64,000 bases of DNA from Candidatus Yonathbacteria bacterium. Lineage in GTDB: Bacteria > Patescibacteriota > Minisyncoccia > Phycocordibacterales > JACNGX01. The notes beneath the pieces are model-generated. The model was not told the origin of the DNA, searched no databases, and saw only the letters and a list, made by a program, of their open reading frames with translations. Position numbers and translations under genes: made by a program. The stretch covers positions 203,769 to 267,768 of the forward strand of contig JAAXWR010000001.1 in NCBI GenBank assembly GCA_013334825.1. The letters are read 5' to 3'. How positions within the stretch are numbered: position 1 is the first letter of the stretch; every line of letters begins with the position of its first letter. Below, in pieces: positions 38,757 through 49,998 of the stretch.

Positions 38757-38930
38757 ATGAAAAAGATAATTGTTGTAAAACGGTCTAACGGTGGTTACTT
38801 TGCCTACGTGGCGAGTGACAATAACATCTTCGCCTCCGGCGTCTCTCCGTACGAGGCAGTGGGGGCGTTGGTCGACGCATACCCCACGATTTTCCAGGTT
38901 GAGGAGGTTGTACTCCCCGATGACCGTTAG
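38757..38930 (+). CDS. small (57 aa) higher-GC protein, HicB/UPF0150-like fold suspected
   Basis: MKKIIVVKRSNGGYFAYVASDNNIFASGVSPYEAVGALVDAY.... Own promoter; terminator hairpin 38945-38975. No HicA partner adjacent. Confidence 0.3.
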   Translation: MKKIIVVKRSNGGYFAYVASDNNIFASGVSPYEAVGALVDAYPTIFQVEEVVLPDDR

Positions 38931-39279: not shown

Positions 39280-40005
39280 ATGGAAATCAAGATGCGTCGC
39301 AAGGGCGAAGTCATCACAAAAGACGGCTTTGAAAACCGTTCTGTTCCTACGGCTATTATGCCGCCGAATGGTCTGACCGGCATTGATCTTACCAGTTACT
39401 CTGTCATTTTCGCCACGTTTGGACGTGGTGGGTATGAAAAGGCAAAGGCGCTTCATGAAAAAGCTCCCGGAGCCATCGTCGTATACAAGTACGAGTGGCG
39501 CAACGGATGGGGCGAGGGAGTTCTCCTTCCCGAACGGTTCAATTCAAGCCGTGTACGCTTTTATAAGAGCGCCAAGCAGGCTCTTGCCGAAGAAAAGGAA
39601 GCCAAGAAAAATGCCATGGAGGCACTTCGGCGAGAGATAGCTGAGGCAATTCCGGGCATTATTGCACGGATGGCGTACACCAACGAAGCTGTGGAGATTC
39701 ATCCCAACCAGGAGGTGTACAGTAGTCGCAGTGCGTGGGTCGTATATGCGACTGCTCTTGAAGAAGCAAAAGAGGAGGTTGCAAAAATGCGCCCAATCTG
39801 GGAGGAGTGGAATGCGAGGGGACTTGAAGTATTCCATCGGCATTCCGAGAAAAAAAATCCTGGATATGGAAGTATTGCATTAATCATCGGAAACTCCGAG
39901 GACGAGGCCGAGATTAATGTCGATCACAACACCCAGGCGTGGGCGAGTCTCAGAAAAGAGGGAGAAAACTGGATTGAAGTTGGTTTTCGCGTACGTGGGT
40001 GTTGA
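39280..40005 (+). CDS. hypothetical protein (242 aa), higher GC than flanks
   Basis: ATG preceded by ggag. Ends 7 nt before terminator 40017-40043. No recognised family. Confidence 0.5.
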   Translation: MEIKMRRKGEVITKDGFENRSVPTAIMPPNGLTGIDLTSYSVIFATFGRGGYEKAKALHEKAPGAIVVYKYEWRNGWGEGVLLPERFNSSRVRFYKSAKQALAEEKEAKKNAMEALRREIAEAIPGIIARMAYTNEAVEIHPNQEVYSSRSAWVVYATALEEAKEEVAKMRPIWEEWNARGLEVFHRHSEKKNPGYGSIALIIGNSEDEAEINVDHNTQAWASLRKEGENWIEVGFRVRGC

Positions 40006-40278: not shown

Positions 40279-41268
40279 TTGTCTACTTTTTGTCTTATGA
40301 CTTTTACACAAAGAATGGAAAAAATACAAAAAGATTTCAATGTCAATGCAATTTATGCAAAGAATATTGTTTTGCGTATACAAGAGAAAAATGAGGAAAA
40401 TTTTTGGAAGCAAGTGAATATTGCAATAATGCAAAAGCCAAAACCGTTTGTAAAATGGGTTGGTGGGAAACGTCAACTACTTAAACAATTTCGAGATATG
40501 GGCCTGTACCCTCCCGTTGAGTTTAATCCCGAGAAGAACAGATATTTTGAACCTTTTGTTGGAGGTGGTGCAGTTTTTTTTGATTTATTGCCACAAAAAG
40601 CATTTCTTTCTGACATGAACAGTGAACTCATTACAACATATAACGTTATAAAGAATGATGTTGAAAAACTTATTATGTCTCTCAAGAAACATAAACATGA
40701 AAAAGAATATTATTATTCAATACGTGAGAAGGATCCTAGTACAATGACCGATGTGGCAGTCGCTTCAAGATTTATTTATCTAAATAGAACTGGATTTAAT
40801 GGAATGTATCGCGTGAATAAGTCTGGGAAATACAATGTTCCTTTTGGGAAAAACAAGAACCCACTTATTTGTGATGAGACGAATCTAAGAAGAGTATCAG
40901 AAACATTGAAGCATGTGGAAATTGCAAGAGACGATTATAAAAATGTTTTGAAAAAAGCAAAAAAAGGAGATTTTATTTATTTTGATCCCCCATATCATCC
41001 AGTGAACAAAACCGCAGCTTTTACTTCGTATACCCCTGACGGTTTTAGGGAAAAAGAACAAATCGAGTTGAGAGATACTTTTTTGAAACTTCACAAAAGA
41101 GGCTGTTTTGTTATGCTTTCAAACTCAGACGCACCGTTTATTAACAAGATATATTCTGAGGTAAAGAATGATGGAATAGCGATTCATAAAGTTCAAGCAG
41201 GAAGGGCTATTAATTCAAAAGGGAACAGACGAGGAAAGATTTTTGAGGTTTTAATTACTAATTATTAA
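40279..41268 (+). CDS. Dam-family DNA N6-adenine methyltransferase, DpnM/M.MboIA-like (GATC-type)
   Basis: KPFVKWVGGKRQLL, YFEPFVGGGAVFFDL, YLNRTGFNGMYRVN, FIYFDPPYHP motifs. Closely resembles S. pneumoniae DpnM by recall. Start may be at M-51 (40429). Low GC. Confidence 0.85.
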   Translation: MSTFCLMTFTQRMEKIQKDFNVNAIYAKNIVLRIQEKNEENFWKQVNIAIMQKPKPFVKWVGGKRQLLKQFRDMGLYPPVEFNPEKNRYFEPFVGGGAVFFDLLPQKAFLSDMNSELITTYNVIKNDVEKLIMSLKKHKHEKEYYYSIREKDPSTMTDVAVASRFIYLNRTGFNGMYRVNKSGKYNVPFGKNKNPLICDETNLRRVSETLKHVEIARDDYKNVLKKAKKGDFIYFDPPYHPVNKTAAFTSYTPDGFREKEQIELRDTFLKLHKRGCFVMLSNSDAPFINKIYSEVKNDGIAIHKVQAGRAINSKGNRRGKIFEVLITNY

Positions 41269-41281
41269 TCATCTAAAAATC

Positions 41282-43015
41282 ATGAATAATATAAAAAAAT
41301 TTATAGATACAAATCCCTACACGTATTCAACCCTTTGTGATAGATACAAAAGATTTTCTATGCCATTAAACCAGCGCCCTTACGCTTGGAAAATTTCAAA
41401 CATTTCCGAACTATGGAGTGCCATTCTTGAAAACGAAGAAGGTTATTTTGTAGGAAATCTCGTATGTCTAGATCCTTCCGATGAGAGTAATGGTACCCTG
41501 GTTGTTGTAGATGGCCAACAAAGGTTAACAACCATATCGCTTATACTTATTGCCATTAAAGATATTCTTATCGAATGCAATGATGGGACTAAAAAAACAA
41601 CCCAACTTATAAATTGGTTAACTAACAGTTTACTTTGGCAAGATCCCAAGACATACGAATATTTTCCAAGATTGATCCACAGTAAAGAAAATTTGCTTGA
41701 GGCGTATAAAAATATCTTAGAAAATGGAAACGAAATTCCAAAAAATATTGACGATAATCAAATGCGTTATTATTCGAATATTAGATATATAAAATCTCTC
41801 ATAAAGAAAGAAATTAAAGCAAAATCTGATGATCAGATTGAAAAGCTTATACAAAAGATTTTATCCCTACAGTTTATAGCGATTGTGGTAAATTCAGAAA
41901 ATGATATTTACGATTTGTTTGAAGGTTTAAACTCAACAGGGTTAGGTCTTTCCGTTGCTGATCTGTTAAAGAATTCAGTTCTAAAATTTGCCCGAAAAGG
42001 AAGAGCAAGAGAAGAAATAGAGGCGGATTGGATCCAAATGGAGTCATATTTTGAAGCAACAAAAACATCCCTGTTCCCTAAATTCCTAAGACATTACTAT
42101 ATTTCTGAGAATGGTCTTATTTCTTCTTCTCGACTTTTTAAAACTCTAAAGAAAGAAAAAATTGAGAATAAACAAACTCAAGAAGTTGTTGCGTTTGTGA
42201 AAGAGCTGTTGGAGAATGCGCAGATATATATGGGGTTAAGATTTGATGAATATGAAAGCAATCTTAACCTACTTGTTCGCGATAGGGAGAGTAAAAAGAT
42301 AATTAGAACTTTTGAATATGTAGGAAGTGTTGATCAAGTTTATGCGGTGTTGTTGGCTTTTTATAACAAAAAAAGGCATGACCCTGATTATAAACCGAGC
42401 TCTTTTAAGCGAGACATTCGTCAACTCCTTAAATTTGTTATATTGGCAAGATTTGTAAGTATCAACCCTTCGGAGTATGAAAAAATATTTGGTGATATGT
42501 GCGAAATATCCACAGAATATTCAGGGGTAAAATATGAAAAAGAGATAGGACAACATTTTAAGAAATTGTTTAATTTAGTTAATAAAAAAGATGAATTTGT
42601 GAGTAATTTCTCAAACGAAATAGAATATGGAAGAGATTCAAAACTCATAGAATATCTTTTGCAAGAAGTGATGCGAGAATATTCAAAAGAAGATCGCGGA
42701 ATAACAGTATTGAACCCAAATATCGAGCATATTTTACCAAGATCTCCAAAAAAATGGGGATTGGATAAAGAAGATATAGGTTCTTATGTTAATAAAATAG
42801 GCAATCTCACAATTCTTCATGATCTAGACAATAATGATGCCGGGAATGAAACTTTTGAAGAAAAGATGAAGAAAGTTTATTCTGTTTCGAAATTTAGATT
42901 TAATAATGATATAAGTAAATATGAAGAAGTTTTTGTCGAGAATCCTTCACTGGCAATTGAACAGAGAGGGAAAGATATTTCCACTTTTGTTTTTAGTTTT
43001 TTAAAGTCAATCTAG
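41282..43015 (+). CDS. GmrSD-family protein: N-terminal DUF262 (ParB-like, DGQQR) + C-terminal DUF1524 (His-Me/HNH-like) domains
   Basis: VVVDGQQRLTTISLIL near the N-terminus; NIEHILPRSP...IGNLTILHDLDNN near the C-terminus. 577 aa. Confidence 0.75.
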   Translation: MNNIKKFIDTNPYTYSTLCDRYKRFSMPLNQRPYAWKISNISELWSAILENEEGYFVGNLVCLDPSDESNGTLVVVDGQQRLTTISLILIAIKDILIECNDGTKKTTQLINWLTNSLLWQDPKTYEYFPRLIHSKENLLEAYKNILENGNEIPKNIDDNQMRYYSNIRYIKSLIKKEIKAKSDDQIEKLIQKILSLQFIAIVVNSENDIYDLFEGLNSTGLGLSVADLLKNSVLKFARKGRAREEIEADWIQMESYFEATKTSLFPKFLRHYYISENGLISSSRLFKTLKKEKIENKQTQEVVAFVKELLENAQIYMGLRFDEYESNLNLLVRDRESKKIIRTFEYVGSVDQVYAVLLAFYNKKRHDPDYKPSSFKRDIRQLLKFVILARFVSINPSEYEKIFGDMCEISTEYSGVKYEKEIGQHFKKLFNLVNKKDEFVSNFSNEIEYGRDSKLIEYLLQEVMREYSKEDRGITVLNPNIEHILPRSPKKWGLDKEDIGSYVNKIGNLTILHDLDNNDAGNETFEEKMKKVYSVSKFRFNNDISKYEEVFVENPSLAIEQRGKDISTFVFSFLKSI

Positions 43016-43058: not shown

Positions 43059-43925
43059 ATGGAAAATAGTAAGTTTTTAGTCTTTAAAAATACACGAAAA
43101 AACTCAATAAAGACTTGGGAGTATTTTGTGAATTGGGATAAGGTATTCAAGAATAAGAGAGAAGTGGAAATAGCTCTTAATAAAATGAATTATCTTCTCG
43201 GAAAAGAAAATTTAAAAGAAGAGTTTTTCTTATTATTGAAATCAGAACCAGATATTATAAAAACTTTCCCCATTCTTTTGGCGGTAAGAGAGCAAAAATT
43301 AGAGATTTATGATAAAAAAGAAAAGACATCGAGGTTTTTTGATTTTTCTAGTATTGATAATATGGAAGATCCAGAAGAATATTTTGAATTTTTTGAAAAT
43401 ACCGGTCTTACCAATATTTTTAAAAAAGATGGTGTAAAAAACCTTGTCGATTATGTTATGGGCGTAGAAGTTGGTCTTGAAAGTAATGGGAGAAAAAATC
43501 GAGGAGGTCAACTCATGGAGGTGATAACTGAAGAGTATATAAAGCAGTATTCAGAAGCAAATCATTTTTCTTATTTAGCACAAGCCACTGCGAAAGGTAT
43601 TTATGAAAGATGGGGTATAAATATTTCTGTAGATAAGTCAGAAAGAAGTTTTGATTTTGCTGTATATAATCCATTAAAAAATAAAATAAAATTGTTCGAA
43701 GTAAACTTTTATAATGGAGGAGGTTCAAAATTAAAAGCGGTTTGTGGAGAATTTAAAGGTCTTTTTGATTATCTAAAAGCACAAGGTGTTGAATTTGTTT
43801 GGATTACTGACGGTATGGGTTGGAATAATACGACAAGACCCCTTGAGGAGGTATATAACCATAACGATAATATCTTCAATCTATCAATGCTCGAAGAAGG
43901 GGTCCTCAACTCTCTTAAATGGTAG
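43059..43925 (+). CDS. type II restriction endonuclease, DpnII/MboI family (GATC)
   Basis: 288 aa, same length as R.DpnII. Motifs NLVDYVMGVEVGLESNGRKNRGG, EVNFYNGGGSKL, FVWITDGMGW match R.DpnII by recall. Confidence 0.75.
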   Translation: MENSKFLVFKNTRKNSIKTWEYFVNWDKVFKNKREVEIALNKMNYLLGKENLKEEFFLLLKSEPDIIKTFPILLAVREQKLEIYDKKEKTSRFFDFSSIDNMEDPEEYFEFFENTGLTNIFKKDGVKNLVDYVMGVEVGLESNGRKNRGGQLMEVITEEYIKQYSEANHFSYLAQATAKGIYERWGINISVDKSERSFDFAVYNPLKNKIKLFEVNFYNGGGSKLKAVCGEFKGLFDYLKAQGVEFVWITDGMGWNNTTRPLEEVYNHNDNIFNLSMLEEGVLNSLKW

Positions 43926-43937
43926 TATATTTTTTGT

Positions 43938-44690
43938 ATGAAATTTGGTCCAGACACATTTGATTTAGAATGTACAACCGTATGGGCTTTTCCTCGACGT
44001 GGTAATTGGGCTACACATACGTCAGATTGGCGTGGGAATTGGTCTCCTGAAGTGGTGCGCAATCTCATTTTACGATATTCCGAAGAGGGAGATATTTTAC
44101 TCGATCCAATGATTGGTGGGGGAACAACAGCAATCGAAGCAAAGATTTTGAATAGAAACATTATTTGTTCAGATGTGAATGATATCGCTATTGAACGGAC
44201 GAAGAATTGTCTTGTGTTTGATGTAGAGAATAATTCTTGGCAAAAGGTCTTGAAAAGAGACGCTAGAGATCTTAATAAAGCAAAAAATGAGAGTGTTGAT
44301 TTTATTCTCACTCATCCTCCATATGCCGATATTATAAAATATAGCGATGGTAAGATAGAAGAAGATCTTTCAAATATTCATAATATAGATTCCTTCGTCG
44401 ATGAAATGGAAAAAGTGGCAACGGAGCTTCATAGGGTTTTGAAGAAAGACAAATACTGCGCAATTTTAATCGGAGATACTCGTAGAAATAAAATGTATCA
44501 GCCTTTAGCTTTTAAGGTAATGGATAGATTTTTGAAAACAGGTTTTCAATTGAAAGAAGATATTATCAAACGACAATTTAATTGTCAGGCGACAGGTTTT
44601 TGGGTGAATAAATCAAAAGAAAATAATTTTCTCCTTATTATGCACGAACATCTCTTTGTGTTTCAAAAAGTTGGTGGAGACGCTCATTGA
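43938..44690 (+). CDS. second DNA methyltransferase (N6-adenine/N4-cytosine, ParB-like methylase family) of the R-M operon
   Basis: AdoMet motif I LDPMIGGGTTAIEA and motif IV ILTHPPYADI. Its last 7 codons and stop lie inside repeat copy 1. Confidence 0.75.
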   Translation: MKFGPDTFDLECTTVWAFPRRGNWATHTSDWRGNWSPEVVRNLILRYSEEGDILLDPMIGGGTTAIEAKILNRNIICSDVNDIAIERTKNCLVFDVENNSWQKVLKRDARDLNKAKNESVDFILTHPPYADIIKYSDGKIEEDLSNIHNIDSFVDEMEKVATELHRVLKKDKYCAILIGDTRRNKMYQPLAFKVMDRFLKTGFQLKEDIIKRQFNCQATGFWVNKSKENNFLLIMHEHLFVFQKVGGDAH

Positions 44691-44835
44691 CGACGAGTTT
44701 TTCTGGAATGAAGACACGGGGCACTATGAGCCGAATGATTTTACGGATTGCTTTGAGCATACCGGCAACGTGAGGTGCGCGCAGTGCGGGGAAGCGTGGA
44801 CCGGATTGTAGAGCAAACAAAAAAGCGCCGTCTAG
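44669..44835 (+). repeat. Zn-ribbon-encoding repeat, copy 1 (fused to methylase 3' end; no own start codon)
   Basis: ~95% identical to copy 3. Encodes ...LVETLIDDEFFWNEDTGHYEPNDFTDCFEHTGNVRCAQCGEAWTGL* (frame 44671..44811), then hairpin aaaaaagcgccgtctaggcgcttt. Confidence 0.8.
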
Positions 44836-44850
44836 GCGCTTTCGGCTCCT
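44826..44850. terminator. bidirectional hairpin terminator between convergent genes
   Basis: aaaaagcgccgtctaggcgctttcgg, with a T-run on the minus strand. Confidence 0.5.
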
Positions 44851-45230
44851 TAAGGTTTTTTTTCGTTGCAGAGAACACCATTAAGAATGGTGAAACCGAG
44901 AGCTTGACGAATCATGTCGTAATGTTTTGGAGTCGCTATTATTTTGTAGTACAGAGGTTCCCCTTCATAGAGGTTGTTGGGGGTGGCATTGTAGACAGAC
45001 ACCAACTGGGGGAACGGACAATGGGTCCCAGTTATTTTAAGTACAAGCTTACTCAGATCAAAACGTTCAATGATCTCAGCGCATCCTTTACTTGAATCTT
45101 CTTTGAGATATTCAACAGTGTTCCCTTCTCGTCTAATAGAGGTGATGATTGTGGTATATTTTTCGATCAACGCCTCAGGATGTTCCTTGTTTTCCATTGT
45201 GGTATGTTTTTTTGTTTCTTGACTCTGCAT
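44850..45230 (-). CDS. hypothetical small protein, paralog family A (C-terminal ...YY.I..P....M......GFT motif)
   Basis: C-terminus EPLYYKIIATPKHYDMIRQALGFTIL aligns with the 46634..46963 and 49479..49760 products. Confidence 0.4.
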   Translation of the reverse strand: MQSQETKKHTTMENKEHPEALIEKYTTIITSIRREGNTVEYLKEDSSKGCAEIIERFDLSKLVLKITGTHCPFPQLVSVYNATPNNLYEGEPLYYKIIATPKHYDMIRQALGFTILNGVLCNEKKP

Positions 45231-45337
45231 ACTTCTCTTGCGATATAGTATGCTTTTGGTCCAACTGTGTCAACAGAGTACGTAAAGTGAGAGTTCTTTA
45301 TTGGTTGGATTGTCGAACAAAAGGAAATCGTCGTGTG

Positions 45338-45378
45338 CGTAGAGCCCCGCACATCTGTCAGATGTGCGGGGCTCTACG
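45338..45378. promoter_or_regulatory. perfect 20-bp inverted repeat (41-bp palindrome) overlapping the ATG of repeat copy 2
   Basis: cgtagagccccgcacatctg t cagatgtgcggggctctacg. Confidence 0.6.
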
Positions 45379-45523
45379 CAAGTTGGTGGAGACGCTCATT
45401 GACGACGAGTTTTTCTGGAATGAAGAGACTGGGCATTATGAACCGAACAAGTTTACGGATTGTTTTGAGCATACTGGCAACGTGAGGTGCACGCAGTGCG
45501 GGGAAGCGTGGACAGGCGCTTGA
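45362..45523 (+). CDS. small Zn-ribbon protein (repeat copy 2), possibly decaying
   Basis: MCGALRKLVETLIDDEFFWNEETGHYEPNKFTDCFEHTGNVRCTQCGEAWTGA. Differences from copies 1 and 3 are mostly synonymous. The longer in-frame 124-aa ORF from 45149 overlaps the upstream minus gene and looks non-protein-like. Confidence 0.3.
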   Translation: MCGALRKLVETLIDDEFFWNEETGHYEPNKFTDCFEHTGNVRCTQCGEAWTGA

Positions 45524-45667
45524 AAAGGAGTCTGCAGAAGAGTTGAAATCTCTCGAAAAGTCCTTGTGTGTCTCGGATGTTGACATATATTATTTTTTAT
45601 GCTACTCTAAAACGAGTAAAAGGAAATTACAGTTTTCATTAATATTCGAATCATTCAAGGAGGCAAC

Positions 45668-45871
45668 ATGGCCACTATTAAAGAGGGAAGTCCGGTATGG
45701 GTGGACGCCAATGGCGTCTGTCACCTGCTTACTTGTGATCACATTAAATCACCTGCCGTTCATGGGTTGGCAGGCGAGAACAGGGACGCCCTATTCTGCC
45801 CTGTTTGTATGGAGGGATACCGCACAATTCCCGATTTCCCGTATGATGAAAGCCAAGAGATTTCAGTGTGA
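45668..45871 (+). CDS. small Cys-rich protein (67 aa), candidate zinc-binding
   Basis: SD aaggagg 6 nt upstream. CHLLTCDH...CPVC. Possible promoter ttgaca-17-tactct at 45578-45606. Confidence 0.45.
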   Translation: MATIKEGSPVWVDANGVCHLLTCDHIKSPAVHGLAGENRDALFCPVCMEGYRTIPDFPYDESQEISV

Positions 45872-46007
45872 AGTCCGCTTTATTCCTCGATGAGGCGATT
45901 CTGTGGGCATTTGCAACGGGTTTGTAAAACCCAGCTTTTCGTGGTCTTGAGAAGGAAAAGAAAGAGATATATCTTAAGTCCACGATCAGGGCTCTTTTCC
46001 CCGGTAT

Positions 46008-46224
46008 CGTGTTTGATTCATTCGTCGAATTTGGACAATTTCTGGAGGCTTTTCTCAAACCCGCCCTCATGGAGGCTTTTCCACATTTCAAGCATGGTCC
46101 TGTCGGAAGTAAAATACTTTCCGAAGAAATGCTTAAGGTCCTTGCACTTCTCGAAACGAACGGTCGGGAATGGAAAGACAATGTAGAGTGGAGGAGGAAG
46201 TTCTCTCAACTGCTGACCCATTGA
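46008..46224 (+). CDS. possible small protein (GTG start), weak
   Basis: 71 aa, helical-looking. No SD. Followed by terminator 46245-46278. Confidence 0.2.
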
Positions 46225-46244
46225 TTGTTTTCGTGTGATGTGAA

Positions 46245-46278
46245 AAACAACCCGCTGCTTGTATAGAGCGGGTTTTTT
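46245..46278 (+). terminator. intrinsic terminator
   Basis: aaacaacccgctgcttgtatagagcgggtttttt. Confidence 0.65.
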
Positions 46279-46454
46279 GTATCGAGAGTTATTTTTCGGA
46301 GATAAAACGACATGTAATTAACATCAATGGGTATTTAGTGCCGGATAGTGTGTTTCAAGAATAGGCACTCATCAAATAGAATAAGAAATCAGTCGAACTT
46401 TATGAGTAAAAGATCAAAGAAAGACATGCCTGCCAACTCTGCGGGGCCGAGCGC

Positions 46455-46640
46455 AAGTTGGTGGAGACGCTCATTGAGGACGAGTTTTTCTGGAATGAAG
46501 ACACGGGGCACTATGAGCCGAATAAGTTTACGGATTGTTTTGAGCATACCGGCAATGTGTGGTGCGCGCAGTGCGGGGAAGCGTGGACCGGATTGTAGAG
46601 CAAACAAAAAAGCGCCCTGCGGGGCGCTTTTGATTACGAG
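46455..46640 (+). pseudogene. Zn-ribbon repeat copy 3; the reading frame has a stop just upstream and no start codon (upstream ATG at 46400 is in another frame)
   Basis: (taa)KIKERHACQLCGAERKLVETLIEDEFFWNEDTGHYEPNKFTDCFEHTGNVWCAQCGEAWTGL*, then terminator aaaagcgccctgcggggcgctttt. Confidence 0.5.
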
Positions 46641-46963
46641 GGAGTTTCAGCCCCTTTTTTATTTTCTTCATCCCCACTGGTCTTTACAGACACATCTGTA
46701 AAGCCGAATACGCTGAGAAGTTTCTCCATGTGCTCTTTGTCGGGGCAGGTGATTGAGTAATATTCAATCTGCCTGTCTTCTTTCTCAGAGACATGAATAT
46801 CGATATAATTCATCGTCTGATCTTTACCTACGCATAGGAATATTTTGTGAAATTCTTGTGGTCTGATGACCACCACCTTTCCAAACTCTATGACGATGAT
46901 TGCCAGAGAGCCGTCGGGAAGGACTTTCACATGTTTGAAATGTCCTGAGATGTCTTTTTTCAT
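46634..46963 (-). CDS. hypothetical small protein, paralog family A
   Basis: 109 aa. ...IEYYSITCPDKEHMEKLLSVFGFTDV motif. Convergent with repeat copy 3 and shares its terminator. Confidence 0.45.
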   Translation of the reverse strand: MKKDISGHFKHVKVLPDGSLAIIVIEFGKVVVIRPQEFHKIFLCVGKDQTMNYIDIHVSEKEDRQIEYYSITCPDKEHMEKLLSVFGFTDVSVKTSGDEENKKGAETPS

Positions 46964-47131: not shown

Positions 47132-47336
47132 TGCTGTTTTGGTGGTATTTGGTGTGTGGAAAATCGTCGCGCGGGTGGATATCTTGGTTGCACGTATCAA
47201 CACCCTCCGCGCGCGGCAAAAGGAGTCTACAAAAGAGCGAGAACCTTTGGGATGCTTCTCGTTAAGGTGTTTTTTAAGAAAGATGTTTTTGTGTTACACT
47301 TTTTATACATTTATTCATTAAATTCATATACGCATT

Positions 47337-49270: not shown

Positions 49271-49478
49271 CATGCGCTTTTTCTTTTTGTCGGACATCGG
49301 AACAAGTCCGGGGTCTTCGGAAGTCGAAGCCACTAATACATCTAGTATACATATACTGAAACATTGAATCAAAAATTTATACCAAGGTTTAACCTTGGTA
49401 TAACAAAGGAATATATGGATAGAATTGTAAAACATACAAAAAAGCGCCCATTGGCGCTTTCGGAGGTATGCCTTAACC

Positions 49479-49760
49479 TTACCCCTTTATGTATACTTTA
49501 AAAAACACCGTGAATCCAACTGATTCAAGGATTTTTTTCATCGCTGCCTCGTCGGCACGGACGATGATGGTGTCTTCCCCCAGTTTCAGATTGGGCATAC
49601 GCCAACCTTTTTCGATCGCCCACTCTATTTTTTGTTCAAACACCGTAGGAATGGTTTTTTGAGTCCCGTTTCCAAGAATGAAGACGATTTCATCATTCAT
49701 ATTTCTCCGTGCCCCCAGAATTATATGGGAGGGAATTTCGGCTGACTCTGTTTGTGTGGT
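49479..49760 (-). CDS. hypothetical small protein, paralog family A
   Basis: Start MTTQTESAE inside the 49479..49871 ORF. C-terminus TIIVRADEAAMKKILESVGFTVF aligns with the other two paralogs. Minus-strand terminator 49440-49475. Confidence 0.45.
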   Translation of the reverse strand, partial: TTQTESAEIPSHIILGARRNMNDEIVFILGNGTQKTIPTVFEQKIEWAIEKGWRMPNLKLGEDTIIVRADEAAMKKILESVGFTVFFKVYIKG

Positions 49761-49998
49761 CATCTGTATAATTTTTTTATAGTTTTTTATAGCGAAAATG
49801 TGATGAAACACCGATAGGACAATAGCATAGCGTCTCTTATGTGTCAATGGTTTTGTAGAACATTTTTTCATACACTCACTTGGTGTTACTTTTGTGTTGG
49901 ATTTCGGGAATTTTTGTGTTGTGATACGTGGTTTTATTCGTTCTCTCTGTGTGCGAATTTATGTAATATTCTATTGAGACTTGGTTTGGTGAAAGAAT

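Follow-up and report, generated by a model that had tools for sequence, protein, structure and literature searches.

Three direct copies of one sequence lie within 2 kb of each other at the end of a restriction island in a 64-kb stretch of DNA from a Candidatus Yonathbacteria bacterium (contig JAAXWR010000001.1; the whole stretch of 64,000 nucleotides is called the window here). The locus raises the question of what the repeated unit is and how three damaged copies of it came to stand beside a DpnII/MboI-type restriction-modification (R-M) island. The unit is the coding body of a small protein gene, and is neither an RNA nor the end of a mobile element. The gene encodes a zinc-ribbon protein and in bacteria of the Candidate Phyla Radiation (CPR) is normally the last gene of restriction cassettes; the three copies are probably relics of the turnover of such cassettes at a variable defence locus.

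The repeated unit

A repeat search of the window gives a single direct-repeat family with three members (44668-44829, 45380-45541 and 46455-46616), and a 20-mer taken from the repeat occurs three times where 0.03 occurrences are expected. A first-pass annotation, made from the letters alone, had described three near-identical direct copies that read in one frame, and this observation is confirmed: over a 137-nt core the copies are 92.0-95.6% identical in pairs, and all three translate as KLVETLI(D/E)DEFFWNE(D/E)TGHYEPN(D/K)FTDCFEHTGNV(R/W)C(A/T)QCGEAWTG. The bias toward synonymous change that it proposed is present in the alignment, where the comparison of copy 2 with the other two counts 8 synonymous and 4 non-synonymous changes (dN/dS 0.09) and that of copy 1 with copy 3 counts 2 and 4, respectively (dN/dS 0.44). 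Copies 2 and 3 also share, as it had stated, an upstream CQxCGA that contains the first CxxC. The hairpin said to follow the stop codon of each copy is found after copies 1 and 3, which have in common the stop codon, about 25 nt past it and a terminator-like hairpin; it is absent from copy 2, which departs from the other two five bases ahead of the stop. The starts of successive copies are 712 and 1075 bp apart and the spacers are 544 and 931 bp long, and neither the spacers nor the convergent downstream open reading frames (ORFs) have detectable homology to each other.

The annotation had left room for an insertion sequence (IS), a transposase or a structured RNA, but the repeat has no match to any of these kinds, Rfam included. 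Plasmid and phage collections contain no match to it either, and an IS, plasmid or phage origin is rejected on that ground. The Rfam scan of the repeat returned nothing at gathering thresholds, and a permissive scan returned only generic hairpin matches on the palindrome of copy 2 (see below). The window contains no tRNA or tmRNA gene that might have been an integration target. The splitting of one gene by insertion of the island is rejected as well, for no detached 5' fragment (CQxCG...K) is found elsewhere in the window. In the protein collection searched no called protein corresponds to any of the three copies (three ORFs were tested and none gave an exact sequence, and no homologue is identical to copy 2).

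A zinc-ribbon family linked to restriction genes

With the copy 2 peptide as query 35 homologues of 63-86 aa are found (E down to 1.7e-31), none of which carries a Pfam domain. They bear out the earlier suggestion of a small CxxC...CxxC zinc-ribbon family: the protein is conserved at a length of about 67 aa, with the consensus M-x6-FPKHACQxCG(A/S)ERKLVETLIDDEFxWNE-x4-YEPNKFTDxFEHTGNxRCxxCxxxWTG, and both CxxC pairs are among the 23 invariant columns of the alignment. The cysteines C13, C16, C57 and C60 are invariant in 25 of 25 aligned sequences, and the two CxxC knuckles could chelate one zinc. No model in Pfam, NCBIfam or PADLOC matches the family; zinc-ribbon Pfam models give sub-threshold matches only, no helix-turn-helix (HTH) family of Pfam or NCBIfam is matched, and an unannotated PHROG gives a weak match. 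The protein is acidic (isoelectric point, pI, ~4.8), and its AlphaFold2 model (predicted local distance difference test, pLDDT, 77) contains strands only; the fold is predicted to be all-beta. Clustered at 50% identity, 1.84 billion representatives yield 30 clusters of the family, and its members are 60-90% identical as proteins and 65-77% identical as DNA. Matches in genomes come exclusively from metagenome-assembled genomes (MAGs) of CPR/Patescibacteria, plus two viral contigs, in one of which (L026) the gene lies inside a RecT/YqaJ/SNF2 module and in the other (L025) is followed, after about 200 nt, by an ArdC-type gene. When viral sequences were scanned again, with a divergent profile, the same contig came back and no wider phage distribution emerged.

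Among the 43 distinct loci that have upstream sequence, DpnI is the nearest upstream gene in 17, the commonest arrangement in the CPR; it shares the strand of the zinc-ribbon gene and its end is 15-90 nt off. In six further loci the upstream genes are those of type I or type IIG R-M systems or encode a Schlafen-like helicase or PDC-S18. These last neighbours include HsdR with a DUF4357/RAMA protein (L008), a type IIG Eco57I/MmeI-like enzyme (L019), a Schlafen-like helicase with an S24 peptidase domain (L001 and L047) and, in the close relatives of the window, the PADLOC candidate PDC-S18 (E = 6.5e-110) beside a type I system with Fic and an AAA ATPase. The wider flanks of the DpnI pairs differ (PemK and TrmD in L022, MgsA and CobA in L023, an M24 peptidase in L015), and DpnI and the zinc-ribbon gene therefore behave as a unit. 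The upstream partners x120 and x155 had no match in the searches made. In every other locus examined, with 5-10 kb on each side, the zinc-ribbon gene is single-copy. Pseudogenised copies are present in L017, L019, L052 and L062; in L017 (93-1413), from a Parcubacteria MAG, DpnI is split into ORFs of 98 and 136 aa and the zinc-ribbon gene contains an in-frame stop. A link to the R-M system, one of several options listed in the first-pass annotation, is thus the best supported of them, since in many CPR genomes the intact gene lies directly downstream of restriction genes. Nothing on the family or on its linkage to DpnI was found in the literature searched, and both appear to be undescribed so far.

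Anatomy of the three copies

Copy 1 begins at codon 21 of the gene, precisely at the end of the low-GC island (GC ~31%, versus ~45% in the flanks). It had been seen to lack a start and to supply the 3' end of the second methylase, and it does so: in another frame, copy 1 provides the last six codons of the methylase (VGGDAH) and its stop. Native homologues of this methylase end in ...FVF(Q/K)K plus 0-3 residues, and the junction therefore took away the stop codon alone. Programmed frameshifting, which had been proposed at the junction, is needless because the methylase is already complete there. The cluster that contains the methylase at 90% identity reaches across several CPR phyla, Staskawiczbacteria and Gracilibacteria among them, and in one genome of the cluster it lies beside a large serine recombinase; this distribution, with the adjoining recombinase, argues that the DpnII/GmrSD island arrived recently by horizontal transfer.

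We note that the copy 1 junction (44667/44668) matches the outer edge of the right arm of the copy 2 palindrome (45380) with a tolerance of ~1 nt. An independent 5'-truncated copy in L070 (~655) is broken about three codons from the copy 1 junction, and these two breaks may mark a breakage hotspot at the start of the KLVETL block or may coincide by chance.

Copy 2 is a full-length paralogue. Its N-terminus reads (L/M)DCRTKGN...APHIC and corresponds to MDxxTKxFPxHAC of the family except for a five-residue in-frame insertion, and the five inserted codons coincide with a perfect palindrome (Table 1) that had earlier been given as 41 bp and measures 45 bp. The ATG at 45362, formerly taken as the start of the gene, is the internal methionine codon of CQMC, and the native N-terminus lies upstream, at the TTG at 45305. 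As an RNA hairpin the palindrome has a minimum free energy of -50.6 kcal/mol (z = -6.3). It sits within the coding sequence of copy 2 and is missing from copies 1 and 3 and from the relative L005, where the native sequence, GCTCCGCAC...TGTGGGGCC, is already a quasi-palindrome. An origin by fold-back or template switching, in which one arm would have been copied from the other, is reasonable from this comparison.

Copy 3 has an in-frame stop at 46407, and its ATG at 46402 is one frame off and 23 nt before the His-Ala-Cys codons, just as the annotation had described the stop and the displaced ATG. When one base is restored, the product of copy 3 is 65 aa long and can be aligned with the family over its full length. 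The picture of a small zinc-ribbon family that has duplicated and is decaying beside an R-M island thus holds, copy 1 being truncated, copy 2 altered and copy 3 frameshifted.

A defence-island hotspot upstream of cca

From 47161 rightward, across cca, grpE and dnaK, the close relatives L005, L056 and L072-L075 match the window at ~93% identity. Leftward of this point they carry another 10-kb island, which encodes HsdR, Fic, HsdM, an AAA ATPase, HsdS, PDC-S18, one zinc-ribbon protein and NYN. The region upstream of cca is a variable defence-island hotspot. Copy 3 is the positional orthologue of the relatives' single zinc-ribbon gene; its homology to that gene runs from His-Ala-Cys on only, and the 5' end therefore differs even there. 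The three copies are 87-94% identical to the relatives' copy, versus 65-77% to those of other CPR lineages, and copy 1 is 94.2% identical to the gene of L005 and 95.6% identical to copy 3. Remnants of DpnI, or of the neighbour genes seen at other loci, were sought between the copies by tblastn and none was found.

The right edge of the hotspot is marked by an hsdS stub, which lies in the region 47139-47260 of the window. In the relatives (L056 4756-4813 and 7133-7190) the hsdS stub and the end of the full hsdS gene form a 58-bp direct repeat that brackets PDC-S18, the zinc-ribbon gene and NYN, and this is a second 3'-end duplication at the hotspot.

Origin of the copies

On the reading favoured here, turnover of restriction cassettes, successive cassettes from closely related lineages would each have left their terminal zinc-ribbon gene behind, and the nuclease genes upstream would then have been replaced, with right-hand breakpoints in the 5' part of the zinc-ribbon gene. 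In the latest event the spreading DpnII/GmrSD island would have been set against codon 21 of copy 1; its arrival would have removed the methylase stop, and the operon now ends in copy 1 and its hairpin. Once the nuclease partner had gone, all three copies would have been damaged, by truncation, by a palindromic insertion of the template-switch type with a TTG start and by frameshift, respectively. The target of DpnI is methylated GATC, and GATC is what a Dam/DpnII cassette methylates; the two systems therefore cannot coexist, and a DpnI partner could not have persisted because it is incompatible with the GATC methylation expected from the island. Serial cassettes would account for spacers that are unrelated, for 5' junctions that differ from copy to copy and for a divergence of the copies (4-8%) comparable to that from the relatives. 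We infer this order of events, and serial acquisition rather than local duplication, from the anatomy of the locus.

Several points weigh against this reading. Serial acquisition is not demonstrated, because in none of the relatives found does an intact restriction gene precede a gene of the copy 2 or copy 3 type, and no trace of DpnI was found in this lineage. About 20 of the 43 loci have housekeeping or unidentified upstream neighbours, and linkage to restriction is therefore frequent and not obligatory. A structure search of PDB and BFVD with the model gave no significant neighbour. No independent contig was found across 44715-45396, a segment that includes the palindrome, and copy 2 could still be functional. 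Finally, the three copies group together within their lineage, which fits local duplication with turnover of the flanks too.

Because of this grouping, local duplication is a serious rival, which we regard as possible though not the likely course. Here unequal crossing-over would have duplicated the gene in tandem twice, and small indels would have overwritten the spacers, with no traffic of cassettes. The copies are indeed nearer to each other and to the relatives' copy (87-96%) than to that of any other lineage (65-77%), and copies 1 and 3 are alike for ~25 nt past the stop. However, the spacers and convergent ORFs are unrelated even though the copies differ by only 4-8%, the upstream junction is different for each copy, and copy 1 is as close to L005 as it is to copy 3.

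That the repeats are recombination sites, either 3'-end duplications of the att type or attC-like integron sites, is improbable. Integrase, recombinase and IntI are absent from the bracketed segments and the adjoining ORFs searched, the leftmost copy is the most truncated and the rightmost the most complete, which is the opposite of 3'-end integration, and the repeat is coding sequence under purifying selection that is a single-copy gene across the CPR. The arrangement that suggests such sites is that direct repeats of 140-190 bp bracket gene-sized segments, with a parallel in the relatives' 58-bp hsdS repeat, and that the breakpoints of copy 1 and L070 both lie near codon 20.

An assembly artefact, in which a repeat had caused a mis-join or inflated the copy number in the MAG, is very unlikely, although short-read contigs do all break within the repeats, which fragment short-read assemblies of this Yonathbacteria MAG, and 44715-45396 is the part that no independent contig spans. 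Each copy has private single-nucleotide differences and unique flanks. The independent short-read contig L063 is 100% identical to the window over 45397-46508 and joins copy 2 to copy 3, with the copy 3 frameshift; L027 and L028, both short-read contigs, carry the same fusion of methylase and copy 1, L020 and L021 reach copy 3 and confirm its right flank, and the methylase fusion protein is found under two NCBI MAG protein accessions. The view that the conserved unit acts as DNA or RNA (a terminator, a 3' untranslated region module or a structured RNA) in which the frame is incidental draws on the hairpin of copies 1 and 3, at which the methylase operon and the convergent ORFs now terminate, and is hardly credible given that the differences are concentrated at synonymous sites, that protein identity is 60-90% while DNA identity is 65-77%, that Rfam gives no match above threshold and that, the palindrome apart, folding energies at the 5' junctions, stops and downstream flanks tested are unremarkable.

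As to function, the position of the gene behind nuclease genes suggests that the zinc-ribbon protein may modulate or bind a nuclease. A narrower and rather doubtful proposal is that it is a dedicated partner of DpnI-type and other restriction nucleases in the CPR, an acidic protein that would bind the nuclease as a safety catch or modulator and be a functional analogue of dpnD, and that its phage relatives are captured versions that serve as anti-restriction factors. If this were true, the decay of all three copies would follow directly from the swap of a methyl-dependent partner for a GATC-methylating DpnII cassette. The family, small and uncharacterised, is a testable candidate for a restriction accessory factor in CPR bacteria, and the gene offers a way into the role of the second gene of the DpnI cassette.

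Neighbouring features

Coordinates of the features are collected in Table 1. The island's operon has the order M1, GmrSD, R, M2, with GmrSD embedded in an operon of the MboI/DpnII type. In the closest non-CPR homologue, from Fusobacterium (L064 2666-3484), the order is M1, R, ORF, M2, where the unannotated ORF encodes 272 aa that are Mrr-like by the look of the sequence. In Staskawiczbacteria (L065 3435-8299) a homologous methylase pair flanks a DUF6996/DUF6997 protein in place of DpnII. The cassette adjoins a large serine recombinase, and this arrangement suggests that it is mobile and has had its nuclease swapped. Between rpsI and the R-M island are two plus-strand ORFs, 38757-38930 (57 aa) and 39280-40005 (241 aa), each followed by a strong hairpin, and these may belong to the variable region too.

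The 126-aa ORF between copies 1 and 2 has no match in Pfam, PADLOC or NCBIfam. The 67-aa ORF between copies 2 and 3 is a called gene in the independent contig L063 and has no match in any library. The minus-strand ORFs 46634-46963 and 49479-49871 have a short C-terminal motif in common, D.xxM.K(L/I)L..(F/V)GFT (BLASTP E = 0.018), and neither could be assigned to a family; paralogy among the convergent ORFs after copies 1 and 3 and at 49479 was considered and rejected as not significant. At 49416-49449, in backbone DNA that is conserved in the relatives, a 34-nt stretch resembles the stop and terminator region of copies 1 and 3 (82% identity); it is probably a convergent terminator or a very old remnant.

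Table 1. Features of the restriction island and of the three zinc-ribbon gene copies (window coordinates)
Feature	Position	Strand	Remarks
Dam-type (D12 class) N6-adenine methyltransferase	40279..41268	+	First gene of the island; PF02086, E = 8.5e-61
GmrSD type IV restriction enzyme	41282..43015	+	Inside the island; PF03235, PF07510
DpnII-family restriction endonuclease	43059..43925	+	PF04556, E = 2.2e-89
Second (N4/N6) methyltransferase	43938..44690	+	Native stop lost; PF01555
Copy 1	44668..44811	+	Zinc-ribbon codons 21-67 and stop; lacks first CxxC and native start
Terminator-like hairpin	44821..44843		Common to copy 3; scores on the minus strand, facing the 126-aa convergent ORF
126-aa ORF	44850..45230	-	Between copies 1 and 2; promoter-like site 45273-45245
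Copy 2	45305..45523	+	Full-length paralogue, 72 codons from TTG 45305; alternative start GTG 45335
Perfect palindrome, 22+1+22 (45 bp)	45336..45380		Inside copy 2, over codons RRAPHICQMCGALR
67-aa Cys/His-rich ORF	45668..45871	+	CHLLTCDH...CPVC; between copies 2 and 3
71-aa ORF	46009..46224	+	Followed by terminator-like site 46255-46271
Copy 3	46402..46598	+	Full-length gene with 1-nt frameshift between ATG 46402 and His-Ala-Cys codons (46425)
Terminator-like hairpin	46608..46631		3' of copy 3
109-aa convergent ORF	46634..46963	-	Called gene in L020 and L021
Type I hsdS 3'-end stub	47160..47249	+	VDILVARINTLRARQ; right edge of the hotspot, directly upstream of cca

Comparison with known systems

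For each of R-M controller (C) proteins, Lar, diversity-generating retroelements, integron cassettes and att repeats, at least one defining feature is missing here. C proteins are likewise small, encoded in R-M operons and thought to tune restriction, and the first-pass annotation had suggested such a role. They are, however, HTH DNA binders whose genes usually lie upstream of, or overlap, the R gene, whereas the zinc-ribbon protein is predicted to be all-beta and its gene is downstream of the nuclease gene; a C-protein-like DNA binder is disfavoured because the protein is acidic and has no HTH. A search for a C-box operator, in which copies 1-3 and L005 were compared, found a sole palindrome, that within the coding sequence of copy 2. 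Small zinc-ribbon proteins of anti-restriction or restriction alleviation (Lar, and those of ArdC neighbourhoods) resemble the family in size, in paired CxxC motifs and in the position of the viral relative upstream of an ArdC-type gene; Lar itself (PF14354) is matched by 2 of 25 members, far below threshold (best E = 0.066). The template and variable repeats of a diversity-generating retroelement are rejected, since the differences include both transitions and transversions, fall for the most part on third codon positions and are not adenine-specific, and no reverse transcriptase domain is present in the ORFs tested between 39187 and 46963. An integron cassette array is rejected because the local ORFs include no recombinase and the repeats are coding and under purifying selection, and att repeats of an integrative element because the 544 and 931 bp that they bracket contain no recombinase and the most truncated copy is upstream.

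The closest precedent, the pneumococcal DpnI cassette, consists of the endonuclease gene dpnC and of dpnD, whose function is unknown, and is allelic with the DpnII cassette dpnM, dpnA, dpnB (PMC4471560). It resembles the CPR loci in that a small gene of unknown function lies directly 3' of DpnI, in the CPR at 17 distinct loci, and in that GATC systems of the DpnI and DpnII types alternate at a variable locus, the DpnII-type cassette of the window abutting a zinc-ribbon gene. It differs in that the CPR protein is a CxxC...CxxC zinc ribbon that is also found after type I, type IIG and other defence genes, and in that no DpnI allele was found in the lineage of the window. DpnD/PcfM (PF14207) is absent from the matches of family member 1 and from the 25 most-matched Pfam families listed at E <= 1.

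The kind of event is an ordinary one, the decay of paralogues in a defence hotspot. As at other such hotspots, where serial replacement leaves truncated copies of flanking genes, this hotspot of a reduced genome leaves 3' gene stubs with terminators, three of the zinc-ribbon gene and one of hsdS, the hsdS stub being the second example at the locus. It differs from them in that nearly the whole of a small gene has been kept, three times in 2 kb, with one copy fused to a methylase.

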